From Rhizophagus irregularis (taxonomy: Eukaryota), in contig NC_089432.1 of NCBI RefSeq assembly GCF_026210795.1, positions 4,712,001-4,776,000 on the forward strand: DNA of 64,000 bases. Direction: 5' to 3'. Under the pieces are notes generated by a model. That model saw nothing but the letters and a program-made list of their open reading frames with translations. It was not told the DNA's origin and ran no database searches. Position numbers and translations under genes: made by a program. Positions within the stretch are counted from its first letter, which is position 1, and each line of letters starts with the position of its first letter. Positions 6,865 through 43,783 of this stretch are shown here, piece by piece.

Positions 6865-9289
6865 TTATTCATATCCATCTAAAGTTAAAAAATAACAAAT
6901 TATAAATTAATTATTTGCTTTATAAAGAAATCTCATTTATTTAAGAACTTACCATCAGGAATTTCCAGTTCATCTTGTTCTTTCGAATGAAGATTTGGAT
7001 TATTATATACTTCGTCTTCATCTGTAAGAAATAAATAATTAAATTAAAAAATAATATAAAAATTAAATAAAAAATTCGCATAATTCGCATACCATCAATA
7101 TCACCAATATTTTGTCTTTTCATTTTTTGTTGAATTATTTCTTTTTCATCATCTAAATTTTTAAATTAAAGCTTAGTACATTTAAATAAATATATTGACA
7201 AAATAATTTTTACTTTTTTTTGCTTACCATCAATATCAATATCTTTCCTTTTCATTTGTTGTTGAATTATTTCTTTTTCTTCATATTGTTTTTAAAATAA
7301 AAGTCACGTTATTTAATAAATAAAACTGTTACAATGAATATTATTCACTTATTTACTTACTATTTGAATTTTGCAAATTTATAAATTCTTTGGGTAATTT
7401 TTCACTATCACCTAAAATTAAGAACATAGAAATAGATTTTAATATTTAATTTATTATTTCAAACAAATCACCTTTAAAAATATTTATTAATTATACCTGA
7501 TAATTTCTTACTATACTGCTCATTTGATTTATTAAAGTCGTTAACTAAAATAAAAATTAATTATTAGATATCATTACATGATAATTCAACGTTATAATGT
7601 TATTAAATACTTACTATTGTTAGGAATGTTAAAATCATACAATTTACTATGAAACACTATTAATAGTAAAATAAAGTATTTAAAACTAATTAATTATAGT
7701 TACCAAAAATGGTAGAAATTATTATTTATATGGTTATACCTTCTTGTTCTTCTATTATAATAAAAAGATAACATTAATAATGTATTTTAAATAAATACAT
7801 CCATTAATAAAATATTATACACTTATACCTTCTGTTGCGTTTTTTGGTTCAGGTAGGTTTCCAAAGTTGTGAATTTTACTTGTAAATAATCTGCTACTCG
7901 TATAATTTTCTTCTACTTTATTCACTTCTAAATTATCCATTTCTGATTTGAATAATTCATCTGACATATTTTGATAATATAAATTAAGTTTTATCACTTT
8001 AATCGCAAGTGCATAAGCGTCAGGTCTTTTTAATGGATCAGCATCCCAACATTCTTTCATTAAATTTTTATATTCTAACGGAGTTCCTGGCACAATTTTT
8101 GGTCTTATACCATCAATAATATTATATACAAGAATATGTTCATCTTCATAATCCATAAATGGTGGTTGTCCAAATGAAATTTCCCACATAAGCATTGCAA
8201 TACTATAAATATCAGATGCAAAAGTATATCCTCTTCCAACAATAACTTCGGGTGCTATGTAAGGAAGATTTCCATATATACTTGTTGAAGATTTATCAGC
8301 AGGTCCACAAAATCCAAGATCACTAATATACCAGTAATCATTATATTGTGAATATAATATATTTCCAGAATGTAAATCTCTATGAATTACTTTCTCTTTA
8401 TGAATACGATAAAGTGAAAGAATTATTTCATAAGTAATATTAATTCTCTTTTTCCATGTAAGTTGATTATGATTTTGTTGTAAATATTTTCTTAAATCTA
8501 TATCCATTTCCATCATTACGAGAAAATAATTTCCATTTGATGGATTTTGTGTTAAACCAAAACATCGAACAACAACTGCCCATTTATTATTTATAGTTAA
8601 ATGTGATTTAGCCTAAAAGACAATAATTTGTAAAAATACTAGTGTTAATACAAAAAATTACAACAATTTTATGAAATATAGAATACAATAATACAAACCT
8701 CTTCAAACCAACTTTGATTTGCACTTTCAACATTTTCTAATTTTTTTAATACTACTTCGCCATATCCAAATCTTTTTAATTGTTTTTTTTCAAAATCCCA
8801 TTCTTCATAATTTCCATTAATCCAATCTGCTGTATAAATTTCTGAGAATCCACCTTTTGTTAAATATTTAATATTTTCTAAATTACTATATGGGATCCAT
8901 TCAACTACCATATCTGGCGCCAATGTTTCCATTTGACATTCCTGTATTAAATTATCAATATCATCATTCCCGGATGTCCAATTTGGAAAATTTTCTTGTA
9001 AATAATTTCGGACACAATATTCACAATATAATGTAGCTAAGCATTCTTGGTTACAATTTTCACAAATTCTTCTTGTTCCTGAATTATAATAAATTTTATC
9101 TCGATCATAATTGTCAATTAAATATCTTATTGCTTCAATTTTTTCATCATCTGTAAGAATTTTATCAGCAAGGACTGTTTGTTTTTGAAATTCAAATTGT
9201 TTGTGTATATCATTGTAAATATTAGTATCTGTTAATGTTGATACTCTATTAACTGTTGCATTAATTAACTCATATCGAAGAGTGGACAT
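6865..9289 (-). CDS. Tyrosine-kinase-like (TKL) Ser/Thr protein kinase, multi-exon
   Basis: Exon 9289-8699 has CxxC..YCEYC, WTSGN, EWIPY, KGGFSEIY and VVLK. Exon 8612-7829 has HRDLHSGN, DLG, YIAPE and CW. Several small GT-AG 3' exons follow (e.g. 12-nt 7751-7740; DEDEVYNNPNLH..LEIPD), with a final TAA at 6865-6867. Confidence 0.9.
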
Positions 9290-12200
9290 AATGCAATCAA
9301 TAAGAAAGAAAGAAATAATTATTTTAAGTTCATTACTTCGTTACTCCGAGATAAATTAGTAAAATGCAAATTGTTGATCAAACTTCATGTTGTGCCCACA
9401 TAAATTTTGTAACCTTGAGGCGTAGTATTTTACGCCTCATAACCAAAAAAAGAAAACCATTTATTACTGTACTTTCTATACTTAGTATGATAATTTAAAA
9501 TTAAAAATTTCTTTTTTTTATTTTTTTTGCGTCACTCATCGCTTCCCCTCTGTTCGCTTTTTTCAGCGAATACAATTTATGTTTAACTAGTTGATTGTCA
9601 TATTAATGAATAAATATATAGTATCCTTGATTATTGATTAATTTGATAAACAAAATCAATGATTGTTATTCAATAGGTTATTAATTCGTTGTCATTTTTA
9701 AATCTTATTTAAAAAAAAATCTATAAAAACATGATTGATGAAAAGTCAATTTAGTTATTTTCACTTGAATTTATTTTAAATAAACAACGTGGCGAATAAT
9801 AAACATGAAAGATTATAAGAAACCATTCAATTTATTATTTCTACTAAAAAAGTCATATCTAAGAGAAAGAATTTCTGTAGAATTATTATTATTATTTTTT
9901 TTTTTTTAAGATGTACGCAAATATAGGTTTAAATAAAAATATATGGTTTAATAAAAAAAATAAGTTTGAATGAAAGAATGATTACGTAACTATTTAGTTT
10001 AATAATAAATAAGGAATAGATCAGGCGCAAGTATATCACGGGTTTTCATATTATGACACGGGTTTCATGTTACACAATTCAAATTATTTATATGGAGACT
10101 ATTCGTCTATTCTAAACGGCAGACAAAATTTTTTTAGTTATATAGATTAGAAAAATTTTCATTCACCAACTAAATGAATATTAATTAAAAAGGGAGATAA
10201 CTGATTTTATGGCCAATAAATGTAAAATTTTTATGATTTGTGGCATGAATAATAATTTTTTTTTAATTTTTGAACAAGGTTTCGAACAAAGATATTTTAA
10301 TTGTGTGAAGAATATAATTTAATTGACGAATGACAACAGTAAATGAAGTCATTTTTAAATAATTCGTAATAACAATATTGCATCAAATTATTATCATCAA
10401 CGCCATCTTTATTATGATAATCAAAACTATGAAAGACATTTTTAATTCTGCTAAATTGATAAAATTTGAAATTGTTTAAATTGGCAAATCAATACAATTA
10501 AAAAGTTCAAGAATTCTTTAAAGAATTTGAGGATGTTTGATAATTTTCTTTTTGAAAAAATTCACCATCTGTCTGAAGCGTATAAATGTGAGAATATTTG
10601 TACTTGTATTATCATTATAATTTCAGACAGACATGAATCTGAGAGATCACTAATAAATAAATTATTACATTATCAAAACTCAATACGTTTTAATTTGTGT
10701 CGGAATAATTCCTCAGAACAAAAAATAATACTAATCGTTAATATTCACCAATTACCTTTGAAGAATATAGTAATATAAAATATAATTAAATTAAATTTCA
10801 TTGTTTTTGTTATAATAAAAGAAATCATCAAATTTTATTTATGAGATTAAAAGAGAATTTTTTATTTCTTGTCAAACATTTAATTGTCGATCTTCCAGGA
10901 ATTTCAATCGGTATCTAATATCTATTAATAATGATTCTTCAGTTATTTACTGCAAAATATTTCAAGATTTCTTTAAGTAATGCAATCTTTGAAAGTGCAC
11001 TTGATTTTTCTTTAAAAATGTGAAAAAATGAAAATTTATTTATTTTTACGATGTAATTTATCAAATTATATTGTATTGATCGGATTATATTTTTTTTAAT
11101 ACCCAGTATTTAATTTATAATCGGCATAAATTATACTTTACATCACCTAACTGTATTTTGGAATGTAAGACTCTTAATATTTAAATATTAACCGATTAAA
11201 AAATATTATCAGATATTGATTTATCATAAAATTTTTTGTAGTATGTATTTCTTAAATGTACGCTTATATCTGCAGTGTAAAATTTTTTTTTTTTAAAAAA
11301 AAAGGATAATAAGCCAACAATAAAAAGAACAGCATAAAAGATCATTATTCATTGAAGTTGTCCAGTGTACAGATATATTTGACATGTCAATGTCAATAAA
11401 TCGTGTTGTCAGTTTGTTATGGTTAGTCTAAATTGATAGAAATATTACAAAATATATATACATACTGTCAATAATTATTTAAATTTGCTAAATCACTACC
11501 TTTATAACTTTTTATTTACTGTGAATTTGTGATAGCACTTTGATTGTCGTTTTTCAATTTGTAATTCATTTATTAACATTATTATCAATAGATATTTCTT
11601 TAAAAAGTCTTATGCATTAATTAAATATTTATGATACGTTGATAGATTTACTAAAACCAAAATTAGACAATTAAAATTCTAATCATCGGATATTAATAAA
11701 ATAATATATTTCAAAAAAAAAATTCTAATTCTAAAACTATTCTCAAACTATACTAAGTTCTAAAACCAAACTGTTATAACCTTTCCTAATTGACTATTCT
11801 AATAAACCATTAATTAAAATAATTAATGTGACACCTTTTCATCTTAAGAAAAAGGCAAAAAGAATCAAATGTTAAAATTATAAGGTTTAATTATTAATAC
11901 TAAAATCTAAAATGATAAAAGCTATGTGGTTATAAAATCGTATTTATACTTTCTAAGGTGATACTATTTTCCTCGAATGAATCCCACATATAATCCAATA
12001 AAACCAATTATTCTATGAATATCCCCATTAATAAAGATCAATCGCCATTTTTATGTCCCGTAGATCTATTAATAACCAGCATAGTTTAACGTCATCGCTG
12101 ACGCAGTACATTTAAGACACTTCAACTTTTTATACACTTAAACTAAATATAATATCGCGCCCAAAATTAATAATTTTACTGTAAAAGTTTTGAGGTAAAT

Positions 12201-22673: not shown

Positions 22674-25600
22674 ATGGACCAACGTATTAAAGGTACATCA
22701 AACAAGCTGAAATATTTTTTTATTTTATTATAAACAATCCATGTTTAATATTTTACATAATTCAACTAACTACATTCTTAATTTAAATAACTAGATTGTA
22801 AGTAATATATATATAATGTACAGTAAATAATTTTATATTATCTTTATATTTAACTAATTAATAATTGATAATACTACAGGGTGTAAGTTATATGATATCA
22901 TTTGTATTATTTATAATTTAAGCTAACTAATTTCTTTAAAAAAATTATTAAATAATATAGGGTGTAAGTTATTTATTTAATTCTACTATTACTTATTGTT
23001 ATTATATTTACATATAATTTAAACTATTTAATTTCTTTATTTAAAAAATTATTAAATAATATAGGGGGTAAGTTATTTATTTAATTCTATTATTATTGTT
23101 ATAATATTTACATATAATTTAAACTATTTAATTTCTTTATTTAAAAATTATTAAATAATATAGGGTGTAAGTTATTTATTTAATTCTATTATTACTTATT
23201 GTTATAATATTTACATATAATTTTAACTATCTAATTTCTTTATTTAAAAAATTATTAAATAATATAGGGGGTAAGTTATTTATTTAATTCTATTATTACT
23301 TGTTGTTATAATATTTACATATAATTTAAACTATCTAATTTCTTTATTTAAAAAATTATTTCGTAGATGGTAAGTTATTTATTTAATTCTATTATTACTT
23401 GTTGTTATAATATTTACATATAATATAAACTATCTAATTTCTTTATTTAAAAAATTATTAAATAATATAGAAAGTAAGTTATTTATTTAATTCTATTATA
23501 ACTTATTGTTATAATATTTGCATATAATTTTAACTATCTAATTTCTTTATTTATTTAATAGATTGTAAGTTATAAGTTATTTATTTAATTCTATTATTAC
23601 TTATTGTTATGATATTTACATATAATTTAAACTATCTAATTTCTTTATTAATTTAACAGATTGTAAGTTATAAGTTATTTATTTAATTCTATTATTACTT
23701 ATTGTTATAATGCTTACATATAATTTAAACTATTTAATTTCTTTATTTAAAAAATTATTAAATAATATAGGTAGTAAGTTATTTATTTAATTCTATTATT
23801 ACTTATTGTTATAATATTTACATATAATTTAAACTATCTAATTTCTTTATTTATTTAATAGATTGTAAGTTATAAGTTATTTATTTAATTCTATTATTAC
23901 TTATTGTTACATATAATTTAAACTATTTAATTTCTTTATTTAAAAAATTATTAAATAATATAGGAGTAAGTTATTTATTTAATTCTATTATTACTTATTA
24001 TTATAATATTTACATATAATTTAAACTATCTAATTTCTTTATTTAAAAAATTATTTCATAGATGGTAAGTTATTTATTTAATTCTATTATTACTTATTGT
24101 TATAATATTTACATATAATTTTAACTATCTAATTTCTTTATTTAAAAATTATTTCGTAGATGGTAAGTTATTTATTTAATTCTATTATTACTTATTGTTA
24201 TGATATTTACATATAATTTAAACTATCTAATTTCTTTATTAATTTAACAGATTGTAAGTTATAAGTTATTTATTTAATTCTATTATTACTTATTGTTATA
24301 ATGCTTACATATAATTTAAACTATTTAATTTCTTTATTTAAAAAATTATTAAATAATATAGGTAAGTTATTTATTTAATTCTATTATTACTTATTGTTAT
24401 AATATTTACATATAATTTAAACTATCTAATTTCTTTATTTATTTAATAGATTGTAAGTTATAAGTTATTTATTTAATTCTATTATTACTATTGTTACATA
24501 TAATTTAAACTATTTAATTTCTTTATTTAAAAAATTATTAAATAATATAGGAGTAAGTTATTTATTTAATTCTATTACATTAATATTATAATATTTACAT
24601 ATAATTTAAACTATCTAATTTCTTTATTTAAAAATTATTTTACAGATGGTAAGTTATTTATTTAATTTATTATTACTATTGTTATAATATTTACATATAA
24701 TTTTAACTATCTAATTTCTTTATTTAAAAATTATTTTGTAGATGGTAAGTTATTTATTTAATTCTATTATGTTTATTGTTATGATATTTACATATAATTT
24801 AAACTATCTAATTTCTTTATTAATTTAACAGATTGTAAGTTATAAGTTATTTATTTAATTCTATTATTACTTATTGTTATAATGCTTACATATAATTTAA
24901 ACTATTTAATTTCTTTATTTAAAAAATTATTAAATAATATAGGTAGTAAGTTATTTATTTAATTCTATTATTACTTATTGTTATAATATTTACATATAAT
25001 TTAAACTATCTAATTTCTTTATTTATTTAATAGATTGTAAGTTATAAGTTATTTATTTAATTCTATTATTACTTATTGTTACATATAATTTAAACTATTT
25101 AATTTCTTTATTTAAAAAATTATTAAATAATATAGGGAGTAAGTTATTTATTTAATTCTATTATTACTTATTATTATAATATTTACATATAATTTAAACT
25201 ATCTAATTTCTTTATTTAAAAAATTATTTCATAGATGGTAAGTTATTTATTTAATTCTATTATTACTTATTGTTATAATATTTACATATAATTTTAACTA
25301 TCTAATTTCTTTATTTAAAAATTATTTCGTAGATGGTAAGTTATTTATTTAATTCTATTATTACTTATTGTTATAATATTTACATATAATTTTAACTATC
25401 TAATTTCTTTATTTAAAAATTATTTCGTAGATGGTAAGTTATTTATTTAATTCTATTATTACTTTTGTTATAATATTTACATATAATTTTAACTATCTAA
25501 TTTCTTTATTTAAAAAATTATTTAATAGATTGTAAGTTATAAGTTATTTATTTAATTTTATTATTACTTATTGTTATAATATTTACATATAACTTTAACT

Positions 25601-27579
25601 TTCTAATTTCTTTATTTAAAAAATTATTAAATAATATAGGGGGTAAGTTATTTATTTATTACTTTTTGTTATAATATTTACATATAATTTAAACTATCTA
25701 ATTTCTTTATTTAAAAAATTATTTTGTAATTTATTTTAGTTGGTAAGTCATAAGTTATTTATTTAATTCTATTATTACTTATTATTATATAATTTAAACT
25801 ATCTAATTTCTTTATTTAAAAAATTATTAAATAATATATAGGGGGTAAGTTATTTATTTAATTCTATTATTACTTATTGTTATAATATTTACATATAATT
25901 TAAACTATCTAATTTCTTTATTTAAAAAATCATTTCGTAGATGGTAAGTTATTTATTTAATTCTATTATTACTTATTGTTATAATATTTACATATAATTT
26001 AAACTATCTAATTTCTTTATTTAAAAAATTATTATGATCTAGCTTGTAAGTATCTCTATTGTTATATATTATATAATATTTATTTGTTAATTGAATTCTT
26101 TTATTTAAAAATTATCTGTTACTTTAGTTGGTAAGTTGTAAATTATAGGTTATTATATGTATTTATCCAAAAACTAAGACTTACATTACATTACATTAAA
26201 TTCCTATTTAAATTTTAGAGTAAGTAATAATTTATTTTAGTGTAAATTATAATACAATCTATAATATAATTTTAATTATTTAAATTTATAGATTTGGAAA
26301 AAGTGGAAATACAATTATAGATGATTTTATTCTTGAAAACAAATTAAGATGGATTCCTTATAACAAATTTAAAAATGTTGAATATCTTAATGAAGGAGGA
26401 TTTGGTACTATATACAAAGCTATTTGGTTAAAGAATAATGAAGATGAAAAAGAAGTAATTCTTAAATGTCACAAGAATTTAAATGAAAATTTAAGTGAAT
26501 TTTTAAAAGAAGTATGATAGATTGATAGTATATTATTTTTTATTTTCATAATTTATATTAATAAATTTTTATTAATTTTGTAGTGGGACTATTATAAGAA
26601 TTGTTTAAATTCATCATATGAAATTGTAAATTTTTATGGATTTACAGAAGATCCAAATATTTTAAAATATATAGTAGTAATGCTTTATGCAAATAATGGT
26701 AATTTAAGAGAAAATTTAACAAGAATAGTCGAAAATAATTGGAATGAAAAATTATGTATGTTGTACAGAATTATTTCTGGACTTAATAAGATACATGGAG
26801 AAAATCTTATTCATTGTGATTTTCATGATGGTAATATTTTAAATCATAATTTTTATGAAACTTATATTAGTGATTTAGGATTATGTCAACCTGTAAAATC
26901 ATTTTTGAAAAAGCATGATATTTATGGTGTTATACCATTTATGGCTCCTGAAGTTTTAAGAGGCAAATCTTATACTCTAGCTAGTGATATATACAGTCTT
27001 TCTATGATTATGTGGGAATTTACATCTGGAATACCACCATTTAATAATAGAGCACATGACATTCAACTTAGTTTAAGTATTTGTAGAGGTGAACGTCCTG
27101 AAATTCTTGAAAATACTCCACAATGTTATGTAGATTTAATGAAAAAATGTTGGAATGAAGATCCATTAAAAAGACCATCTGCTAAAAAAGTATTAAAAAT
27201 TATTGAGAATTGGCTTATCCATTCTGATTATGATGAAGTTAATGAAGAATTAAAAAGCAACATTATGGAATTTATAAGTGCACCAATTGGGCAGCATAAC
27301 AATCTTGTTACTAAATCTCATCCTAAAGCATGTTATACAAGTCGTTTACTTGATTTTACTAGTAAAGAATTGAATGAAATTCTCAAAATTGAAGATTCAC
27401 AAGCTAGTATAAAAGCAAATGAAATGCTAGTAAGTGAAGATTTGAATGATTGTATAATTAAGGATTTGGGGTCATTAGGTATGTATTATGATATATAAAA
27501 GAATTAATCTTGCAAATTATTTATGTAAAATTAATTTTATTTAATATTTAATTTAGATATTAAAACAGATGAAAATTAA
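22674..27579 (+). CDS. TKL protein kinase with micro-exon-encoded N-terminus
   Basis: Putative exon 1 is 22674-22692 (MDQRIK+G), followed by ~36 micro-exon sites at 22795-26219. Exon 26292-26511 has SGN..IDDFI..WIPY..EGGFGTIYKA..VILK. Exon 26584-27478 has HCDFHDGN, DLG, FMAPE and CW. The last exon is 27557-27579 (DIKTDEN*). The kinase core is secure; the 5' structure is inferred from splice signals and frame. Confidence 0.8.
22790..26291 (+). repeat. ~95-105-bp tandem repeat array = duplicated intron + 3-nt micro-exon units
   Basis: Every unit reads ...YAG-NNN-GTAAGT...(CTAAT branch-like)...T/A-rich...YAG. The variable NNN is ATT, GGT, GGG, ATG, AAA, GTA, GGA, TTG or CTT. A higher-order six-unit block of ~585 bp occurs about three times (23660/24251/24832). 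Confidence 0.9.
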
Positions 27580-32889: not shown

Positions 32890-33492
32890 TGTAATGCCGT
32901 AGTATATCTAGTAAATTTATTAATTGTGAGGCGCAGTATTATATTTAGTCTTAGTGTATAAAATTTTAACTTATTTTTATTTTTATTTTAATTGGACCGA
33001 GAAGTCGTTAAACTAATAATCACATGGATTAAGGTAATTGGTCCGTGATGACCTTAAACTATTAGTCACGAGATTTAAGGATAAATGAAGATCCGAAAGA
33101 TACTAAATTGAATGAAATCAAGTGATCTGAGATGTCAAGTGAGTAATTTGTTGATCACTACGTTAATATTATAAATCATAATTCAGGAGTTTATGATGAT
33201 CAAATGGATACAAAATTAAGATAATGGAAATACTTTAAAACAATGGAAATACTTTAATAATTTAAATCCATGAATTGAAATTATGAATTTAGTTACACAA
33301 GAACAAACATAAAAGGGCGTGAAGATCACCTTTTGAGAGAAAAGGAGACGAATTTTGTTATGAATTATTTATTTTATCATTTAATGTTATTAAACCAAGC
33401 ATATTATTGTATTTATTTATATTATTAATAAAGAGTCATTTTGTTAATACCTGAGGTGGCAAACATAATTCTCTATGGGCTCAGGTGTTACA
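32890..33492 (+). repeat. 5' LTR
   Basis: TGTAATGCCG...GGTGTTACA; no differences from the 3' LTR seen by eye. Confidence 0.97.
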
Positions 33493-33494
33493 AG

Positions 33495-33512
33495 TGGTGC
33501 ATGCTCCGAGAA
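33495..33512 (+). promoter_or_regulatory. Primer binding site, inferred tRNA-Gly
   Basis: TGGTGCATGCTCCGAGAA, 2 nt after the LTR. Its reverse complement TTCTCGGAGCATGCA-CCA is a canonical 18-nt tRNA 3' end with a GCATGC-type acceptor stem. Confidence 0.85.
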
Positions 33513-34083
33513 AGGAAAAGTGATCATCCTCACATGATCACTGCAGGTTATAAGTACAGGATCTCTGAGAAAAGAAAATGATCACCCCACGTGATCATTA
33601 GAAGTTACAAATAAAGGATCGACGAAGTTAAGGAATTATAAAATTAAAAGTTCTAAGTCTTGGTTGGAAAGAATTTAAGGTGTATTGATGTTAAATTTTA
33701 ATAAAATAAAGTCAAATATTTTAAAGGATACGTGAAAATAATGGTTACCAATGTAAAAAGTATTAATTTGGGTAAGTATGACCATAAATGTATGAAGAAA
33801 TAATGTTAAAAACTAAATTTTTGATCTAACTTGACCACCGGCTGATAAGTCAATGAAAAATTATTATTATAATAATTTTCATACATATGAACCAAATATG
33901 TATGGTAGTAATTGATTATCAAGGGAAATGCGAGGCTAATCAAGTTAGAAGGGGTTTAATAAAATATTGTAAATAAGTTCCATGAATTAAGGATTAAAAA
34001 TAATTTTTATAAATAATTGAGGTTAAGTTAAGGATAAAAAAAAGTGTACCCAAAAACCGACACTATAAATACGATGGTAGGGT

Positions 34084-34230
34084 AATTCTGTGTGAACTCA
34101 ATTGAGGTTTTCTGTGTGATCAATTGAGAATAGTTCTGTGTGAGCTTTTTCTGTGTGAACTCAATTGAGGTATTCTGTGTGATCAATTGAGAATAGTTCT
34201 GTGTGAACTTCCAAAAACAATTCTGTGAGG
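34084..34230 (+). repeat. Short tandem repeats (TTCTGTGTGA + TCAATTGAG modules) in the element leader
   Basis: About seven TTCTGTGTGA motifs with palindromic TCAATTGA spacers. Confidence 0.85.
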
Positions 34231-34343
34231 GTACCCAAGAAGAATCATGATTAACGTTAACGAAAATAAAAATAATATTTGCTGGACAAATATATTCAAG
34301 GAAAGTTATAAAAAGGTGAGGAATTCGATCTCTCACCCATAAA

Positions 34344-35027
34344 ATGGAATACAAAATCAATTTAACAAAAGAGGATTCAGAAAAATATTTGTGTAAAGGA
34401 AAAGGAATTAAATTAAAAATTTATAATGAAGATAATAAGGCCATCAGTCTAAAGACCATCTATGATGTTAGACCACCCAAAAAGAAAAAAAAGAGATGTT
34501 TGACCTGTGATGATAGAGAACATGTGAAAAGGACCAAAAGTGAGAATAAAGTGGAAAGATTTATAAATGAATTGTTGACACCGGTAAATGTGGAAGACCT
34601 ATTGATACCAGAAATACAAAATGTAGAAATTCATGATGTTGAAAAATTAGTAGAAAGATACATCAGTCTTGGAAATACAAATGGTAAAAACATCTTAATA
34701 TGGTACAATATTGGACAAATTTTTGAACGAGAAATTAAAGCAAGAATAAATCAAACAAAGCCAGACCAGACAGCTAGAGAAGAATTATATGATGAAATGA
34801 TGGAATTTATAGTTAATGAAAGTACTGATGAAAAACAAAAGAAGAAGGAAGCATTAAGGAAAAGGATGCAAGGAGCTATAAAAATATATAAACTTTTTAC
34901 TGAAATTGGTCAAGATAAGATATATAGAGTAAAGGAAACATTTGTAACGACTATTATAAAATTGACAAATCCGGAAATACAACAAATAATCGGACAAATC
35001 AAATATGGATTCACACTCCAACCTTAG
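34344..35027 (+). CDS. Extra 5' ORF of the retrotransposon, 227 aa, unknown function
   Basis: Intact ORF between PBS and gag with an NLS-like PPKKKKKR, a CxxC and a helical C-terminal region (ALRKRMQGAIKIYKLF..IG.DKI.RVK). Confidence 0.75.
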   Translation: MEYKINLTKEDSEKYLCKGKGIKLKIYNEDNKAISLKTIYDVRPPKKKKKRCLTCDDREHVKRTKSENKVERFINELLTPVNVEDLLIPEIQNVEIHDVEKLVERYISLGNTNGKNILIWYNIGQIFEREIKARINQTKPDQTAREELYDEMMEFIVNESTDEKQKKKEALRKRMQGAIKIYKLFTEIGQDKIYRVKETFVTTIIKLTNPEIQQIIGQIKYGFTLQP

Positions 35028-35193
35028 GTTGGGAATTTTAAGGAAAAATATAAATTTATTTGTACAAACCTGTAAACTACCATACTCAGTAATGAACAAA
35101 TGAGGTAAAGGCAAGCCCAGTATAGGTCAAATAAAATATAAAAGAAGGATAAAAAGTAAAAGACGTGAAAATTTTTAGAGAATTTTATTAAAA

Positions 35194-38100
35194 ATGGAAT
35201 GGTACCATGTTTGGAACGCTGGATATATAAACCATAAACAAGAACATGACCTAGGAGTGATAGAGCCAGAGGAATGTTTAGCATGTGAAATATGTAATCC
35301 AATAGAAAGAGAAGTATCAGCAGCATTCAAGAAATTTTGGGATGCTTTATTTAAATTCGAGGATACAATACTAATGTACAATAATGTGACACATAAAGAA
35401 TTATTGAATTTATTAAGTATGGACAATAGAGAAAGGGAGGATACAATACATAAAGGAAAATGTAGGAATATAGTAGATAGAATAATTGAATCAATAAGGT
35501 ACAGACAACAACCAAAAATGAAGGAAAAAGGATTGAGAATAATAATTGTAGTAATTGTAAGGGATTGTATTGAAGGAAACTTGGAAAATGAAGTATTTGA
35601 TCGATTGATAGGATGTCCAGAAATAATGAAACATGGATACATTTTAGAAGATTGGGATGTTGAAAATAGATTTCAAAAATTTTGGGATTGGTATAACACG
35701 ATATTGGAAAATGAAATGAAAGCAATACATGTTAAGAAGTTAGCAATAAAGTTATTCAGGGATTTATTATATGAAGAAACAGAAGATCTGTTGAGGAGTG
35801 AAAAGGTAGTTGAATTAATACTCCAGATAGAACATCAGAATAGATGTGAGGTAGACACTCAAGAAGGAAAGGATGCATGGAAGAGATTGATGCAGAAAGT
35901 AGGACAAAGATTTATTGACACCAAACAATTTACAAGGGAACCTGAGGACCCAGAAAGTGATAGTCCTGAAAGTTATGAATTAGAGGACAGTGATGGTAGT
36001 ATACATTATGAAATAAAAATAGAGGATGATGTCGAATGGACAGTAGAATCATTAAAAAGAAAAATTGAAGAAATGGGTGGAAGGTTCACTGACAAAGATA
36101 TACAAAGGATGTGGGACCTAAGGATAAGGATAGAATTGATATTAACAGAGGACTTTTTAGGTACATTTTTCGAATTAATGAGACTAAGTGATGAAAAATT
36201 AAAAGATGAAATAAATGAATGGTTAACAAAAGAAACATTAATATGTGGAAATTGTAGGAATAGAAAGTTACCTGATATGATAGCAGACATTGGACAATGT
36301 AAAAATTGTGAACAAAAAGAATTATTAGAATTAAAGGATGACTTAGAAAAACTAGGATACGAATTAAATGTGTCAGAAATAGAGAGAATAAGAAAATTCA
36401 GGATAAGCAATAGTATAATATTAACAACGGAATTTATGGAAAAATATTTTCAGGAAATTGATACGAATGACAAAGAATTAAGGACAAAATTATATGAATG
36501 GATAAATGAAAATACCACATTTTGTGATGAATGTGGAATAAGATGGATGAACAATAAATTTGACGAAGGAAAAACCAAGTGTAGGGATTGTGAAAATGAT
36601 GAAAATGAAATTGATATCAGGGTCAAAAGATTAAAACAAATATGTGATGATAATAAAATAGAAATAACTAATGGAGAGCTATTGAGGTTAATCAGTATGG
36701 GATATACTGATGGAGAAATACTGGATCAAGAATTTATTGAAATATTTCAAGGAAATAAAAATGATTTGGAGAAAAATTTAAGGCGGATATTAGATAAATT
36801 TCTAAAACAGCAAGCTGGAATTGAGGATAGTGAAAGTAGTGGAAATGAATCTGATAATGAAAAATCGGATGGATTTGAAAAAGAATCAGATGGATCTGAA
36901 AAAAATGGAGAAATTTTAAATCCAAATGATACCGATAGCAATGAAAATTTTGAAGAACCTTATGAAGAAAACATTATAAATAGACCTGGTTTTGACTCAA
37001 GTGAAAGTTCAGAATCAAACTCTGAAGATAAAAGTGAAATATCTGATTATAATATAGAAAATTTATTTGAAACATCTTTAACACCACCGATACCACCAAT
37101 CCTACCAATAGTACCAATAATTATGGGAGCAACAAGAGCTGAAGTAAGGGAAGATTTTAGAGCGGCTTTACTAGCAGCAACAGGACATGACATAGGAGGT
37201 AATTGGGCAGGATTAGTCGCAGCCAACCCATTAGCAAATGCAATTGAGGATGCAGGAAATGTAGCTGGAGGAATAATTAGTATGCCACAATTTTATGGAA
37301 GGGAAGAAGAAGACATAAACGATTGGGTAAGACAATTTGAAACAGCATTTACTGCCATAGGAAAAGCAGCAGGAGCAAATGGAGCTAGACAAGCAGCAAT
37401 GGCAGCTACCTGTTTGAAAGGTGCAGCAGCACAATGGTATAATGAAAAGAAGGAAGCAAACAATGGTCATTTGGTAAATTGGCAAGATAACGATAATGAT
37501 AATGATTTAAAACATAGGATTAAACAAAGATTTACCAGGGAAGATGTTAGAAAAAGGAAAATGTTAGAATTAAGGAAAATAACACAAGGAGTAAATGAAA
37601 ATGTTGAGGCATATACGATAAGGTTTAGACAAATATTAAGGATAGCTACCAGAGGCCATGCATTAGATGATGAATTACAAGTGGATAATTATATCGAAGG
37701 ATTAACACCAACATTGGGATATCAAGTCAGAAGACAAAACCCAGCAAATTTAAATGATGCAGTGAATACAGCAAGAAGAGAGGAGGAAGCTACTAATGAA
37801 TTAATAAGAAAGACACATGGTATATCAGTTAGTACCCAAAGAAAAGGAATCGATATACAAGATGACAAACCAAAGAATATATTTGAAAAACCATTGGAGA
37901 AAAATTATGAGGATGACCTTGCCGACATGTTTAAAAAATTAGAGGTAAAACTAGTAAATCAACTTGGAGGGCAAAAGAGACCACCAAACAATAATAATAG
38001 ACAAGGACCACCACCTCGAGCATGTTATAATTGTAAACAACCAGGACATTATGCAAATGAATGTAGGGTAAATAATGGTCAAAGAAACTATGGAAGACCA

Positions 38101-38781
38101 AATAATCAAAATTATAATAGAAGATCAAATAACTATAATGGAAGACCAAACAACTATAACAGACCACCAAACCACCAAAACAATAATCGAGGATTCAATG
38201 TAGTGGAATATGATAATTATAATGACCAATATGACCAATATGATTATGATAGTCAGGATTATCAGGATAATTATGACCAAGGATATAGTTATGACGACCC
38301 GTATTATCAAGATAATGATGTAACATTTAACCATGTTGATCAAGATTTTTATATTGGTGAAAGACAAACGAGAAGTAACATAAAAAATAGGTCAAGTAAT
38401 CGAGATGTAGATATGGAAATTGACCAAGAACAAGCACGAAGAAGGAATAATAAATATGCAAGCCAAGAGGAAAGGGCAGCAGCATTACCAAAAAGAGGAT
38501 TCACTGATGAAAGTCTGAAAAAAGCACAAGAAGCAAGGAGAAATAATAATACATGTGGAAATTGTGGACAAAGAGGTCACTATGCAAAACAATGTAAAAA
38601 TGAACGTGTTGAAGGTATTCATAGGACAAGCGCATTTCAAAGAAATATACCAAAATATAACGTATTAGAGGATATGAAAAGTACCAGAGCAAATGCAACT
38701 TTTTCACAAATTATAGATATGAGCCCAGAACAAAGAAAAATATATTATGATGGTATGAGAAGGTATCCACAAACAGATTGA
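35194..38781 (+). CDS. gag: Gag polyprotein with ~640-aa N-terminal extension
   Basis: Capsid-like MPQFYGREEEDINDWVRQFE...LKGAAAQWY...QGVNENVEAYTIRF, plus two CCHC knuckles (CYNCKQPGHYANEC, CGNCGQRGHYAKQC). Confidence 0.92.
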   Translation: MEWYHVWNAGYINHKQEHDLGVIEPEECLACEICNPIEREVSAAFKKFWDALFKFEDTILMYNNVTHKELLNLLSMDNREREDTIHKGKCRNIVDRIIESIRYRQQPKMKEKGLRIIIVVIVRDCIEGNLENEVFDRLIGCPEIMKHGYILEDWDVENRFQKFWDWYNTILENEMKAIHVKKLAIKLFRDLLYEETEDLLRSEKVVELILQIEHQNRCEVDTQEGKDAWKRLMQKVGQRFIDTKQFTREPEDPESDSPESYELEDSDGSIHYEIKIEDDVEWTVESLKRKIEEMGGRFTDKDIQRMWDLRIRIELILTEDFLGTFFELMRLSDEKLKDEINEWLTKETLICGNCRNRKLPDMIADIGQCKNCEQKELLELKDDLEKLGYELNVSEIERIRKFRISNSIILTTEFMEKYFQEIDTNDKELRTKLYEWINENTTFCDECGIRWMNNKFDEGKTKCRDCENDENEIDIRVKRLKQICDDNKIEITNGELLRLISMGYTDGEILDQEFIEIFQGNKNDLEKNLRRILDKFLKQQAGIEDSESSGNESDNEKSDGFEKESDGSEKNGEILNPNDTDSNENFEEPYEENIINRPGFDSSESSESNSEDKSEISDYNIENLFETSLTPPIPPILPIVPIIMGATRAEVREDFRAALLAATGHDIGGNWAGLVAANPLANAIEDAGNVAGGIISMPQFYGREEEDINDWVRQFETAFTAIGKAAGANGARQAAMAATCLKGAAAQWYNEKKEANNGHLVNWQDNDNDNDLKHRIKQRFTREDVRKRKMLELRKITQGVNENVEAYTIRFRQILRIATRGHALDDELQVDNYIEGLTPTLGYQVRRQNPANLNDAVNTARREEEATNELIRKTHGISVSTQRKGIDIQDDKPKNIFEKPLEKNYEDDLADMFKKLEVKLVNQLGGQKRPPNNNNRQGPPPRACYNCKQPGHYANECRVNNGQRNYGRPNNQNYNRRSNNYNGRPNNYNRPPNHQNNNRGFNVVEYDNYNDQYDQYDYDSQDYQDNYDQGYSYDDPYYQDNDVTFNHVDQDFYIGERQTRSNIKNRSSNRDVDMEIDQEQARRRNNKYASQEERAAALPKRGFTDESLKKAQEARRNNNTCGNCGQRGHYAKQCKNERVEGIHRTSAFQRNIPKYNVLEDMKSTRANATFSQIIDMSPEQRKIYYDGMRRYPQTD

Positions 38782-39321
38782 CTACAAGAATCAATGAACA
38801 ACATTGAAGCAGAACATTTAACTGCATTAAGAGGTAAATTAATAATAAACCAAGAATTAAAGGACGTAATGTTTGATACAGGAGCAGCAGTAAATGTAAT
38901 AACTAGTCAGATAATGGATGAAATGGACCTAAAAATTGAGGAACCAAGTACAGTAAGATGTGTGATGATAAATGAGGATAAATTAGCATCTAGGGGTACC
39001 ACGACAATATACATACAATTTGGGGATAAGGAGATACCCATTAAGGTTGAAGTAATTGATTCAGGAAAAAACGAAATTGTGTTAGGAAATGGAGTATTAG
39101 ATATGTTTAAGGCGAATATAGATTACACGGATAAAACAATAATAATTAGAATGAATGATGAAACTATGGATATACCAGTAAAATACACACAAAGGACCAT
39201 TAAAGGGTTTGAAGAAACATTTGATGAAGAGGAAATATTGGAGGAATTATACCAGGATGAATTGTATAACATATATGAAGATGACCATGAAGGTCAGGAA
39301 GATGAAAATTTTAAAGTATAA
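38782..39321 (+). CDS. Retroviral-type aspartic protease
   Basis: VMFDTGAAVNVI catalytic motif and IVLGN motif. In frame with gag after a single TGA. Confidence 0.92.
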   Translation, partial: LQESMNNIEAEHLTALRGKLIINQELKDVMFDTGAAVNVITSQIMDEMDLKIEEPSTVRCVMINEDKLASRGTTTIYIQFGDKEIPIKVEVIDSGKNEIVLGNGVLDMFKANIDYTDKTIIIRMNDETMDIPVKYTQRTIKGFEETFDEEEILEELYQDELYNIYEDDHEGQEDENFKV

Positions 39322-40796
39322 GTCTTGGTCAGAATGATACTGAAGAGACGATAAAGAAGCACAAAAGTGACCATGAAAAATTTACTGAAAAATTTAAAGT
39401 AGGGGACATAACCAATGAACAAAAAGGTAAATTAAAGGTATTAGTAGAAAAATATAAGGACATATTTGAGTACGATGGTGAAAAATATAACAGGACAAAC
39501 TTAGTAAAACATGAAATCAGATTAAAAGGGGGTACTGAACCAATAGCCCAAAAGAGGTACAAAGAAAATGATGAAAAAGGTAAATTCATCAGAAAAGAGG
39601 TTGAAGAAATGTTAAAAATGGGAAAAATTAGAGAATCTAGAAGTCCATGGTCTTCACCAGTGACTCTAGCAGGGAAAAAGTCGGGAAATTATAGATTTTG
39701 CATCGACTATAGAAAATTAAATAAAGTTACAATAACAGATGCATATCCATTACCGAGGATTGATGAACAATTAGAAAGGATAAGTTCAGGAAAATGGTTT
39801 ACCAGTCTAGATTTAGCATCAGGGTTTAATCAGATAGAAATGGCTGAGGAAGATATTGAGAAAACAGCATTCATATGCTCAGCAGGATTATATGAATATA
39901 ATGTCATGCCATTTGGGTTAACAAATGCACCTGCAAGTTTTCAAAGGTTAATGGATAAAGTATTAAAGGAATACCTAAATGAATTTGTGATAGTATACAT
40001 TGATGATATAATGATATATTCGAAAAATTTTGAAGACCACCTAAAACACATAAAGTTAGTGTTAGAAAAATTAAAGGAAGCCAGTTTAATACTAAAGTTA
40101 AAGAAATGTATATTTGGAAAAACAGAAATAGAATTTTTAGGACATGTAGTCGGTAAAAATGGATTAAAACCAAGTCCAGGAAAGGTTGAAAAGATACAAA
40201 AATTAACAGCACCTATAAATATAAAAGGTGTAAGGTCAATATTGGGGTTATGTACGTATTATAGAAAATTTATTAAAGATTTTTCAAAAATAGTAAAACC
40301 AATAACATCTTTATTGAGAAAAGATGAAAAGTTTGAATGGGGCATCAAACAACATGAAGCATTAGAAATATTAAAAAGGAAATTAACCGAAGAACCGGTG
40401 TTAAGACAACCAGATTGGTTAAGGAAATTTATATTAATTACAGATGCTTCAGGAATAGGATTAGGGGCAGTGTTAGCTCAAAAAGATGATAAAGGTCAAG
40501 AATATGTAATAGAATATGCCAGTAAAAGTTTAAACAGGACAGAACAAAGATGGCCAATAACCGAACAAGAATGTTATGCAATTGTATGGGGAATACAACA
40601 TTTCCATAAATACTTGATCAATAGAAAATTTGAGGTAGTAACAGACCATGCAGCTTTGAAGGGATTAATGACTGCAAAAGTACCAAAAGGAAAGAGATCA
40701 AGATGGGTCATGGAATTGGAACAGTATGATTTTGAAATAACCCATAGACCAGGAAAAGAAAATAAAAATGCAGATGCCTTATCAAGAATAATATAA
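39315..40796 (+). CDS. pol: Reverse transcriptase + RNase H
   Basis: Frame open from 39315. Motifs SPWSSP, RFCIDYRKLN, LDLASGF, MPFGL, YIDD, TDAS, TDH, NADALSR; ends at TAA 40796. Confidence 0.95.
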   Translation, partial: SISLGQNDTEETIKKHKSDHEKFTEKFKVGDITNEQKGKLKVLVEKYKDIFEYDGEKYNRTNLVKHEIRLKGGTEPIAQKRYKENDEKGKFIRKEVEEMLKMGKIRESRSPWSSPVTLAGKKSGNYRFCIDYRKLNKVTITDAYPLPRIDEQLERISSGKWFTSLDLASGFNQIEMAEEDIEKTAFICSAGLYEYNVMPFGLTNAPASFQRLMDKVLKEYLNEFVIVYIDDIMIYSKNFEDHLKHIKLVLEKLKEASLILKLKKCIFGKTEIEFLGHVVGKNGLKPSPGKVEKIQKLTAPINIKGVRSILGLCTYYRKFIKDFSKIVKPITSLLRKDEKFEWGIKQHEALEILKRKLTEEPVLRQPDWLRKFILITDASGIGLGAVLAQKDDKGQEYVIEYASKSLNRTEQRWPITEQECYAIVWGIQHFHKYLINRKFEVVTDHAALKGLMTAKVPKGKRSRWVMELEQYDFEITHRPGKENKNADALSRII

Positions 40797-40832
40797 ATAG
40801 ATGGGTAAAAGAGTCACTTTTCAAAAATAAAA

Positions 40833-41096
40833 ATGGAACAAGTGGTAAGAAATACAAATCATAAAATAAAGGATATAATCGAAAATTTAGAAGGTATAAC
40901 AAAGGAATTAAACAGGATAAATTATAACTATAAATTCAAAGCCAAAAATTTTGAAGATAGTGAAGAAAGACCATTAATATTGGAAACTCAAGAGGAAATA
41001 TTACAAATAGAGGTGATATTAAGTAAAGTAAACAAGCTAAAATTATCAGAATTATGTAAAAATGGGACCCAAAATAATAATCATATGTGGAGTTGA
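40833..41096 (+). CDS. Small 87-aa coiled-coil-like ORF between RH and IN
   Basis: ATG-initiated ORF with heptad-like I/L spacing; overlaps the start of the kinase-integrase ORF. Confidence 0.45.
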   Translation: MEQVVRNTNHKIKDIIENLEGITKELNRINYNYKFKAKNFEDSEERPLILETQEEILQIEVILSKVNKLKLSELCKNGTQNNNHMWS

Positions 41097-42843
41097 TGGT
41101 ACTGGAAAAACATTCATTGTAAATAAACTTATAAAAGAATTTGAAAAAGTAGGACAAAGTGTGAGGTTTAACACCTTTAAAAGGAGAAGAGAGGACAATG
41201 ATAAGTATAAAATACCAAAGAAAGGTATAGAATGGGAATTCAGGAAGGAAGTTGTCGAACAAATCAACAGGAGAATGGAAGAACATGATAATGAGGATTG
41301 GTTAATATTAGATAAAAGTCCCTATAGTGAGTACTTTTATCAACAAACACCATCATTCGACAGAGGATACATAACAAGATATGAGAACCACCTATTAGAA
41401 AAGGAAGTATTTAGGAACAAAAGGATAATTGATGAATCAATAGTGATATTTTTAGAAAATGAAAAATGTTGGGAAAATTACAAAGGTAGAGAATATTCGA
41501 AAAAGGATCAAGGACATAAAACATCATATCCATTATTAGATGAAGAAAGATATATGGAGATGGTGAAATCATTTAAAGAATGTCAAGATATTTACGAAGG
41601 AGAAAAATATGCTAATATTAAAATATCAAATAATGACACAGATTGGGAAAGAGTATATAATAAAATAATAGAATTAGATGGAGATAAACCACCAATAGAG
41701 GTTAAAAATGTTGAGATTAAGGATAACATCAGAGTAACTGATGGTAAAAAGCATATTGAGAAAAATGGTAAAAACATCAGAATAATAGAAGACTTTGAAA
41801 AGATGGGAGCACTATATTTAGCTCACAGTCATGAATTATCGGCACATATGGGAATCAAAAGTACTTATGATAATTTAAAAGATAAATATTATTGGGAAAA
41901 CATGCTGAATGATGTTGAAAGATATGTAAGGACATGTGATGAATGTCAAAGAAGAGGAAAACCACAAGGGAAAAATGAATTACACCCAATTAAAGTAGTA
42001 GAACCATGGTATCAAATCGGGATTGACTTTGTTGGACCATTGAACACAACAACAAATGGTAATAAATACATCATAGTAGCAATGGATTATTTTACAAAAT
42101 GGCCAGAAGCCAAAGCAGTAAAAGAAGCAACTGCCAAAGAAGTATCAAAATTTATTTATGAAGACATCATTTGTAGACATGGATGTCCAATGAAAATATT
42201 GAGTGATAGAGGAAGTCATTTCAATAATGAAATGATTAAGGAATTAATGGAAAAATTCAAAATTAAATGGAATTTTTCTACAAGTTATCATCCAGAGACA
42301 AACGGACTTGTTGAAAGATTCAACCGAACATTAGGTCAAGCATTAGCAAAATTATCAACCAAAGATGATTGGGATCAAAGGATAGCACCCATATTATTTG
42401 CTTACCGAAATAAAAAGCATAGTTCAACAAGAATTCGACCATTTTATTTAACATACGGAAGAAATGTACGGACAATAATGGATGAAAATATCAAAGAAAT
42501 TAACCTAAGTGATAGAATAGTTGGATTATTAGAGGAACTACCAAGAATCCGACATGAAGCCAAAGAACAAATACTGAAATCTCAAACAAAACAAAAAGAG
42601 TATCATGACAGAAAAATAATCAAAGAACACACCTTTGGAATTGGAGATAAAATACTACTCTATGATAAAGCCAAAGCACAACAACTATCGGGAAAATTAG
42701 AATCAAAATGGTTGGGACCATTTTACATTCATGAAATACTACCGAATGGAGCTTATAGAATTAAAAATATTAAAGGTGTCATCAAGAAGATACCTGTAAA
42801 TGGAGAATTATTAAAGACTTACCATACACCGATGAGTAAATGA
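41062..42843 (+). CDS. dNMP (thymidylate)-kinase-like domain fused to DDE integrase
   Basis: The N-terminal ~205 aa carry the IIIICGVDGTGKT P-loop and LILDKSPYSEYFYQ (TMK DRxxxSxxxYQ-like). Then follow HHCC (AH..AH...CDEC), the IDFVGP / LSDRGSHF / NGLVERFN core and a WLGPF (GPY/F) motif. Confidence 0.9.
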   Translation: MGPKIIIICGVDGTGKTFIVNKLIKEFEKVGQSVRFNTFKRRREDNDKYKIPKKGIEWEFRKEVVEQINRRMEEHDNEDWLILDKSPYSEYFYQQTPSFDRGYITRYENHLLEKEVFRNKRIIDESIVIFLENEKCWENYKGREYSKKDQGHKTSYPLLDEERYMEMVKSFKECQDIYEGEKYANIKISNNDTDWERVYNKIIELDGDKPPIEVKNVEIKDNIRVTDGKKHIEKNGKNIRIIEDFEKMGALYLAHSHELSAHMGIKSTYDNLKDKYYWENMLNDVERYVRTCDECQRRGKPQGKNELHPIKVVEPWYQIGIDFVGPLNTTTNGNKYIIVAMDYFTKWPEAKAVKEATAKEVSKFIYEDIICRHGCPMKILSDRGSHFNNEMIKELMEKFKIKWNFSTSYHPETNGLVERFNRTLGQALAKLSTKDDWDQRIAPILFAYRNKKHSSTRIRPFYLTYGRNVRTIMDENIKEINLSDRIVGLLEELPRIRHEAKEQILKSQTKQKEYHDRKIIKEHTFGIGDKILLYDKAKAQQLSGKLESKWLGPFYIHEILPNGAYRIKNIKGVIKKIPVNGELLKTYHTPMSK

Positions 42844-43075
42844 TAACTATCATCAATGGACTTAGAAAAATAAAGATAATTTATAATCATGTGAAATAAA
42901 ATCACATGACATAAAAATAATTTTCGAAAATAGGAAAAACTAATGAAAATTTCCTAAGAAAGACCGAAGTGAAATCCGGTACAGGAAAACCGTAGACTTA
43001 ACAAACACATGATAAACCGCAGATGTAGACGCAGCAAAAAGGAATATTTAAAACGCAGCTGAGTCAAGTGACAAT

Positions 43076-43145
43076 GCATGTTTGATTTAGTGGTATAATT
43101 CGCACCTACCACTTCGAGACACGAGTTCGATTCTTAGAATAAATT
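43076..43145 (+). tRNA. Degenerate tRNA-Gly-like sequence inside the retrotransposon 3' UTR
   Basis: GCATGTT TG ATTT AGTGGTA TAAT T CGCAC CTACCAC TTCG AGAC ACGAG TTCGATT CTTAG AATAAAT has tRNA-Gly(GCC) layout, with A-box and B-box retained and stems decayed. Confidence 0.7.
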
Positions 43146-43168
43146 TAATGTGGGCATTAAATTTTTAT

Positions 43169-43180
43169 GCGGGGGATAGT
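43169..43180 (+). promoter_or_regulatory. Polypurine tract
   Basis: GCGGGGGATAGT immediately before the 3' LTR. Confidence 0.8.
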
Positions 43181-43783
43181 TGTAATGCCGTAGTATATCT
43201 AGTAAATTTATTAATTGTGAGGCGCAGTATTATATTTAGTCTTAGTGTATAAAATTTTAACTTATTTTTATTTTTATTTTAATTGGACCGAGAAGTCGTT
43301 AAACTAATAATCACATGGATTAAGGTAATTGGTCCGTGATGACCTTAAACTATTAGTCACGAGATTTAAGGATAAATGAAGATCCGAAAGATACTAAATT
43401 GAATGAAATCAAGTGATCTGAGATGTCAAGTGAGTAATTTGTTGATCACTACGTTAATATTATAAATCATAATTCAGGAGTTTATGATGATCAAATGGAT
43501 ACAAAATTAAGATAATGGAAATACTTTAAAACAATGGAAATACTTTAATAATTTAAATCCATGAATTGAAATTATGAATTTAGTTACACAAGAACAAACA
43601 TAAAAGGGCGTGAAGATCACCTTTTGAGAGAAAAGGAGACGAATTTTGTTATGAATTATTTATTTTATCATTTAATGTTATTAAACCAAGCATATTATTG
43701 TATTTATTTATATTATTAATAAAGAGTCATTTTGTTAATACCTGAGGTGGCAAACATAATTCTCTATGGGCTCAGGTGTTACA
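43181..43783 (+). repeat. 3' LTR
   Basis: 603-bp direct repeat of 32890-33492. Confidence 0.97.

Follow-up and report, generated by a model that had tools for sequence, protein, structure and literature searches.

Evidence for an array of three-nucleotide exons in the tandem repeat upstream of a Rhizophagus irregularis kinase gene

Introduction

A tandem repeat of about 3 kb lies directly upstream of a protein kinase gene in the genome of Rhizophagus irregularis, within a stretch of 64,000 nucleotides (nt) hereafter called the window (RefSeq assembly GCF_026210795.1, contig NC_089432.1, positions 4,712,001 to 4,776,000, forward strand), to whose first letter all positions refer. The question raised by this locus is whether the repeat is satellite DNA without coding function, or belongs to the coding region of the kinase. 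An initial annotation, made from the letters alone, had taken each repeat unit for a complete intron and the triplets between units for micro-exons, which would build the N-terminus of the kinase one split codon at a time and diversify it by exon skipping.

The expanded Ser/Thr/Tyr kinases of this fungus (tyrosine-kinase-like, PF07714) are described as a high-copy class in the accessible text of PMC8647823, and 2,533 kinase genes are given for the species in that of PMC10234402; neither text speaks of micro-exons. Exons of codon size have a precedent in another fungus, since the nank family of Tuber melanosporum, which encodes NACHT-ankyrin proteins, is reported to be diversified by alternative splicing of tens of such exons in the available portions of PMC4986451, PMC10197012 and PMC13449251.

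In this work, we present the anatomy of the array, its comparison with RNA, an analysis of stop codons at exon junctions, and a survey of related loci. The last micro-exons are truly spliced at the level of the gene family, and the triplets of neighbouring exons avoid stop codons when read in phase 1, with each codon shared by two exons.

Results

Anatomy of the array

The interval between a predicted short first exon and the kinase exon is filled by 37 consecutive GT-AG introns of 72-108 nt, all ending in YAG, with donors from 22693 to 26220. The 36 gaps between them measure 3 nt in 32 cases, 2 nt in two, 0 nt in one and 1 nt in the last. The features that matter for the argument are the following (all on the forward strand):

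22674-22692 (+): predicted first coding exon, 19 nt from the ATG, ending in phase 1, donor GTACAT (from sequence; upstream of the span compared with RNA)
22693-26291 (+): intron array with 37 GT-AG introns, 32 three-nt exons, three aberrant units and one 1-nt exon
22795-22797 (+): first 3-nt exon, ATT, flanked by the diverged introns 1 and 2 (from sequence)
23565-25335 (+): recent higher-order repeat, a six-unit block present three times (98% mean column identity, lag-6 peak 0.917)
23964-23965 (+): aberrant 2-nt unit GA, whose counterpart in block copy 3 has 3 nt (25136-25138)
24361-24362 (+): aberrant 0-nt unit, the acceptor adjoining the donor; its counterparts at 23771 and 24943 have 3 nt
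24551-24552 (+): aberrant 2-nt unit GA
25941-25943 (+): 3-nt exon ATG, fourth from last, joined in the loose-end consensus of the RNA (family level)
26043-26045 (+): 3-nt exon CTT, joined in the loose-end consensus of the RNA (family level)
26128-26130 (+): last 3-nt exon, TTG, likewise the last in related loci L002 and L003 (RNA)
26219-26219 (+): obligatory 1-nt exon A, leading from phase 1 to phase 2 of the kinase exon (RNA joint; relatives)

The motif YAG-NNN-GT(A/G)AG is found 32 times inside the array, and the remainder of the 64-kb window has none on either strand. Tandem Repeats Finder calls a repeat at 22912-26034, with a period of 98 and 31.4 copies; introns 1-3 and 35-37 are diverged, with a best identity to any other unit of 0.72-0.74, and they keep the exon and splice pattern. 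On these points the initial annotation was accurate, both in the pattern of the diverged end introns and in all 14 exon coordinates that it quoted. Its description of every unit as a complete intron holds for the GT-AG boundaries and only in part for the branch motif (CTAAY/TTAAC), present in 28/37 introns, and its exon list, right in coordinates, did not name the 1-nt exon at 26219. This exon is required because phase 1 at the end of exon 1, whose six residues are by inspection charged or polar for the most part, does not fit phase 2 at the start of the kinase exon, so that joining the two exons directly, without 26219, is out of frame.

Two features of the array introns may be recorded here: the putative branch motif and the acceptor are far apart (24-45 nt in window introns; median 43 in related loci), and internal AG dinucleotides are scarce in the introns of window and loci (116 observed vs 267 expected).

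The last micro-exons are joined in RNA

RNA of Rhizophagus irregularis was compared with window positions 26040-27500, a span downstream of exon 1 and of the repeat proper, using about one quarter of each of two raw poly(A) runs (X21 and X22) and two contig sets (X2 and X5), i.e., 4 of the 24 listed runs. Reads that lose their match at the start of the kinase exon numbered 252 (X21) and 330 (X22), together with two contigs (X5), and the three loose-end consensuses all terminate in ATG-CTT-TTG-A, which corresponds to the four terminal exons of the array spliced to one another. The joint from 26219 to 26292 (GT..AG) was found in 6 and 10 reads, and that from 26511 to 26584, between the first two kinase exons, in 22 and 18; furthermore, one X2 contig extends from intron 35 over TTG (26130) and the single A to the kinase exon at 26292. 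The support for the 1-nt exon stems from the window locus or from a close paralogue. The micro-exons that the initial annotation had predicted are thus real and spliced in the poly(A) RNA of the family.

Exon order carries a coding signature in phase 1

Junctions between exons were analysed in 35 arrays comprising 245 triplets of 44 kinds, whose order is peculiar to each array; runs were broken at units of other than 3 nt and at gaps of more than 135 nt. When adjacent exons are read in phase 1, stops occur at 0/192 junctions, against 9.7-10.2 expected when the order is shuffled within arrays, and none of 10,000 shuffles was as low; this agrees with the earlier claim of selection rather than chance. 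TAA, TAG and TGA are each depleted at adjacent junctions. We considered that the avoidance of new YAG acceptor sites might produce this pattern, an explanation that was rejected given that TGA and TAA are depleted too and CAG is not. A reading in phase 2 was likewise rejected, as it places stops in 36/192 junctions, and in phase 0 stop triplets number 3/245. Trp arises at 19 junctions vs 10.1 expected, most other residues occurring as in the shuffle, and the commonest phase-1 residues are Asp, Arg, Asn, Trp, Tyr and Lys, consistent with the Trp/Asp/Asn-rich peptide that had been predicted for the kinase.

The depletion is confined to neighbours. With one exon skipped, stops are found in 13/150 pairs vs 8.0 expected, i.e., there is no depletion, and with one to five exons skipped the counts are 13/150, 7/115, 5/92, 8/74 and 4/59, none below the shuffled mean. 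Since stops are depleted between adjacent exons and not between skip pairs, the selected product is the fully included, ordered one, and the combinatorial skipping proposed initially as the diversifying mechanism is not supported as the one under selection. The junctions thus point to the split-codon, phase-1 reading as the right one, in line with the first exons and acceptors of related loci (see below), and indicate that arrays are under coding selection family-wide.

Recursive splicing at zero-nt exons was also considered and rejected: acceptor and donor abut in 1/36 gaps of the window, and in 2/287 donors of the relatives, both equally readable as 3-nt exons. In the related locus L010, the triplets CAG and TAG between acceptor and donor at 1412-1418 and 2195-2201 allow two readings, as exons of 3 nt or as tandem acceptors with units of zero length.

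The kinase gene

Downstream of the array, the gene continues with three exons:

26292-26511 (+): first kinase exon, FGKSGN through the Gly-rich loop and the catalytic Lys (from sequence; RNA joint 26511 to 26584)
26584-27478 (+): main kinase exon, PF07714 protein Tyr and Ser/Thr kinase (Pfam)
27557-27579 (+): last coding exon including the stop codon (from sequence and the end of P0001; downstream of the span compared with RNA)

The first two are identical at 371/371 compared residues to P0001, a protein of Rhizophagus irregularis DAOM 197198 marked as partial, which scores 137.2 bits against a curated PF07714 cut-off of 23.1 and matches kinase families only. The motifs EGGFG, VILK, HCDFHDGN, SDLG and APE are present, and we take them to be, by their sequence, the Gly-rich loop, the catalytic Lys, the catalytic-loop Asp and Asn, the Mg-binding Asp and the APE motif. 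The query retrieves 1595 protein matches (the best 120 of 1595 being listed), which makes this a large family. P0001 begins at the kinase exon, and the database models of the family either start there, run intron sequence into the kinase exon, or appear to use another triplet frame; no transcript-derived, correctly spliced N-terminus was found among the matches listed (best 120 of 1595; 59 of 59; best 120 of 866).

At 27478, the end of the main kinase exon, reads and contigs display joints that run back 93 or 122 bases and probably come from paralogues in which a C-terminal segment is repeated. Another kinase of the superfamily, at 7815-9340 (-) of the window, has a Cys-rich N-terminal motif (two CxxC) and no micro-exon array.

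The layout is widespread among related loci

Metagenomes were scanned with an alignment of the first kinase exon, which yielded 93 confirmed stretches; of these, 80 loci were kept, and 71 remained after the merging of near-copies. The further arrays upstream of kinases that the initial annotation had suggested looking for are common: at least one 3-nt exon precedes the kinase exon in 45/71 non-redundant loci, and at least three in 27/71. Among the 42 loci with at least 400 bases upstream, 3-nt exons are present in 32, the CxxC motif takes their place in 6, and 4 have neither; overall, arrays (45 loci) and the CxxC motif (9 loci) are mutually exclusive, 0/71 loci having both. The nearest YAG stands exactly 3 nt upstream in 238/287 strict donors, with none within 12 nt in 33/287, and the largest array of a relative holds 20 three-nt exons (L010).

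Two subfamilies can be distinguished by the end of the array. In that of the window gene, it closes with a 1-nt exon in L001-L005 and with a 4-nt exon in L007 and L008. The second subfamily lacks an adaptor exon and has its acceptor at a fixed phase-1 position, which is where CxxC-type members read without an intron into the Cys motif. L019 and L036 have first exons of 52 and 97 nt, respectively, which end in phase 1, and both loci have an uninterrupted frame that starts at the ATG, crosses the triplets and enters the kinase. The named relatives that come closest to the second subfamily among the matches listed are from Funneliformis geosporum (67% over 57% of the query) and Rhizophagus (53-59%); therefore, the layout spans more than one species.

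Kinases that share 55-60% identity still have this layout; their introns have diverged and their splice signals are intact. In all 33 arrays tested, the intron units gave a better alignment to a window unit than their shuffled versions, which was not the case for two ordinary kinase introns. This suggests a common ancestry of the array introns, although shared splice signals contribute to the likeness. In a quick kinase tree of 62 rows (60/71 loci, 11 being too short, plus the two window kinases), the CxxC-type rows lie near the root.

Turnover of units in the DNA

The array has grown recently by block duplication, as attested by the six-unit block present three times, of which copy 2 is rich in small deletions. 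All three aberrant units fall inside this block repeat, beside introns near-identical to those around normal units. They resemble the consensus errors of long reads in repeats, and a recently broken allele is just as plausible an explanation; the window copy may thus be intact, with three errors of assembly, or broken not long ago. In the arrays of relatives, neighbouring introns are 0.65-0.95 identical, and units of L010, L033, L036, L066 and L074 have lost a donor or an acceptor. These observations bear out the earlier suggestion that changes in copy number edit the peptide, and the likely source of variation in the arrays is that whole units, each an intron plus a triplet, are gained, lost or mutated in the DNA.

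Other elements in the window

A long terminal repeat (LTR) retrotransposon occupies 32890-43480, with identical 300-nt terminal repeats, a gag-like open reading frame (ORF), RVT_1 and RNase H. Its integrase ORF (41041-42843) is extended at the N-terminus by about 240 residues, which include a P-loop and give a weak AAA_28 match below the cut-off, and an extra ORF at 34320-35027, which precedes gag, has no Pfam match. A very large multi-exon gene at 46287-62954 (-), with an RZ-type zinc finger and AAA-like segments, resembles RNF213-type proteins; within it lies an exact 120-nt tandem duplication (61812-62051). Finally, the multi-exon gene at 2476-3959 (-) looks by eye like a FAD-dependent monooxygenase, and the single piece of it that was scanned gave no Pfam match.

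Discussion

A proposed split coding region that would vary through its DNA

We favour the reading in which a tyrosine-kinase-like gene has its 5' coding region split across the repeat, its exons being spliced one by one in genomic order and the N-terminus varying mainly through duplication, loss and mutation of units in the DNA, and we assign it a probability of roughly 0.6. It builds on the observed exon-intron anatomy, the splicing together of the terminal exons in RNA of the family, the phase, the selection on neighbour order, the recent block duplication and the spread through the family. According to this reading, each intron would be removed singly and the three-base exons joined in genomic order, each codon being common to two exons, and all 30-odd exons would end up in one mRNA. 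For this to occur, each intron of about 95 nt would be recognised by its own signals, i.e., by intron definition, a mode of recognition established for fungi with short introns. The product would be a short Asp/Asn/Trp-rich front end of the kinase, likely to differ among genes and strains, and this peptide, placed at the position of the CxxC/Cys-rich motif of other members, would probably serve as a variable binding or regulatory segment. The homologous introns could act as recombination handles of about 100 nt around a 3-nt coding unit, such that unequal exchange or slippage would add or remove single residues in frame, and the loss of a splice site would remove one.

Several observations weigh against this reading. 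As assembled, the joining of all exons meets a stop at the first 2-nt unit, so full inclusion breaks the frame in the window copy; the frame is open from the ATG into the kinase without the three aberrant units, and the stop-free peptide announced by the initial annotation, which had corrected them, therefore exists only if these units are errors or are skipped. Most of the reads derive from paralogues, those at least 99% alike to the window amounting to just 42/2287 (X21) and 60/2766 (X22); the agreement of the loose ends is 0.57-0.60, and beyond its last ten bases their consensus departs from the window locus. No read of X21 or X22 was seen to span beyond the last exons of the window locus at 26040-27500. 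Given this mostly paralogous origin, the RNA documents joined micro-exons and the 1-nt exon for the family, rather than the full splicing or the isoform counts of this copy. The stop depletion is carried by 17/40 runs, and the 192 junctions are not fully independent because paralogous arrays share ancestry. Among the relatives, L037 is frameshifted in exon 1, L042 and L074 have stops in the first kinase exon, and L046, L050 and L066 contain internal units of 1 or 2 nt; such short units and broken kinases are as expected of a birth-and-death family.

A further-reaching version of the split-coding reading can be offered tentatively. A large kinase clade of arbuscular mycorrhizal fungi may have swapped its Cys-rich N-terminal motif for a recognition peptide encoded at one residue per exon. 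Both exon skipping and recombination among the intron units, from strain to strain and among the nuclei within a mycelium, would diversify this peptide. The result would be a receptor repertoire of signalling kinases at single-residue resolution, of an origin independent of the Tuber system and hidden from annotation.

Alternative explanations

The diversity of N-termini could instead arise in splicing itself, each transcript taking a different subset of triplets and one gene thereby yielding a library of N-termini. In favour of this account, all 3-nt exons keep the frame, the RNA loose ends are heterogeneous, only 4/496 ordered pairs of window triplets form a stop, dead units show that double introns of about 190-220 nt exist, and skipping would rescue the aberrant units of the window copy; moreover, alternative splicing of this kind is reported for Tuber in reviews, as far as their available text goes (PMC4986451, PMC10197012, PMC13449251). 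However, the heterogeneity of the loose ends is accounted for by paralogues, stops are not depleted when one to five exons are skipped, and the Trp excess is tied to neighbour order. Nor is skipping always harmless, as had been assumed at the outset, since direct splicing to the 1-nt exon would create TAA with 13/32 window triplets. We consider this explanation rather unlikely as the source of the variation; low-level skipping, with decay of the stop-bearing products, is possible.

Under a neutral origin, tandem duplication would by chance have copied an intron along with three exonic bases into a dispensable N-terminus, selection acting on nothing other than the frame and the absence of stops, and the peptide being idle. 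The family is indeed of high copy number and fast turnover (1595 matches, the best 120 listed), several array loci are broken, the peptide is of low complexity and not conserved in sequence, and its residues besides stop and Trp mostly match the shuffle. Set against this are the Trp junctions, which exceed what composition predicts, the retention of the layout with intact splice signals among kinases 55-60% identical despite diverged introns, and the location of the arrays at the CxxC position of other members. Accordingly, we regard tolerated expansion as improbable.

Several database models imply instead a phase-0 reading, with one whole codon per exon and a 5-nt last exon, AGTAA. Proteins P0010, P0021, P0031 and P0048 contain Gly/Ile/Leu/Met-rich stretches that end in LSK before FGKS, with a G+I+L+M+V content of 0.59-0.90 vs 0.31 in the kinase, and a second GT lies 4 nt past the used donor. 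In the RNA, however, the donor comes directly after the single A and the loose ends finish in TTG-A; in addition, first exons end in phase 1, the second subfamily has its fixed phase-1 acceptor, and TAA and TAG triplets exist. This reading is very improbable, and the models ending in LSK look like arrays misread in phase 0. Lastly, a plain intronic minisatellite, skipped as a whole or lying upstream of the transcript, would suit the Tandem Repeats Finder call and the partial P0001 model that starts at the kinase exon, but it is refuted at the family level by the joining of the terminal exons in RNA, conflicts with the out-of-frame direct splice and with the coding-type selection at junctions, and is hardly credible.

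Significance and comparison with known systems

If the split-coding reading is true, part of the most expanded gene family of a model mycorrhizal fungus has a wrongly annotated N-terminus, and fungi long thought to be clonal own a built-in means to vary signalling proteins residue by residue. The many natural alleles and paralogues make the questions that followed the Tuber work testable with existing long-read data, such as the relative weight of skipping and DNA turnover, or how the spliceosome joins dozens of 3-nt exons and one 1-nt exon.

Protein variety arising from many small frame-keeping exons or from duplicated exon units is a trait shared with the micro-exon genes of Schistosoma and with Dscam of Drosophila. 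The former encode secreted proteins and have larger micro-exons, and the latter uses mutually exclusive, domain-sized exons; to our knowledge, neither has codon-sharing 3-nt exons on an intracellular kinase. The choice of one exon per cluster that characterizes Dscam is not seen here, given that four consecutive exons are joined in RNA and selection acts at the junctions of neighbours.

Single-nucleotide exons are described in CYP621A of Fusarium (PMC12940212) and in Arabidopsis (PMC4674806), and they have in common with the exon at 26219 that they are obligatory, set the frame and are supported by RNA. As far as the accessible text of both sources goes, those are lone exons in conserved genes, whereas in our case the exon closes an array and alternates with a 4-nt version among relatives.

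The closest known system is the nank family of Tuber, an oversight of the initial annotation, which knew of no comparable fungal kinase and did not cite this fungal precedent. Our literature search likewise found no report of micro-exon arrays in Glomeromycota or in fungal kinases, within a scope outside of which lay subscription journals and the supplements of genome papers. Judging from the available portions of the Tuber sources, both cases involve a fungal symbiont, an expanded family, tens of 3-nt exons and their interpretation as a diversity device. There are 32 such exons in the window gene and up to 20 in a related locus (L010), and the expanded family has a common layout in 45/71 loci along with family RNA. 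The hosts of the arrays differ, being the N-terminus of a kinase in Glomeromycota in one case and a NACHT-ankyrin NOD-like receptor of an ascomycete in the other. Furthermore, the exons reported here are of phase 1-1 with a 1-nt adaptor and a selected order, whereas the same portions of the Tuber sources report extensive alternative splicing. The kinase arrays resemble nank in layout and are not members of it, and they represent a second, unrelated fungal case of codon-sized exon arrays.

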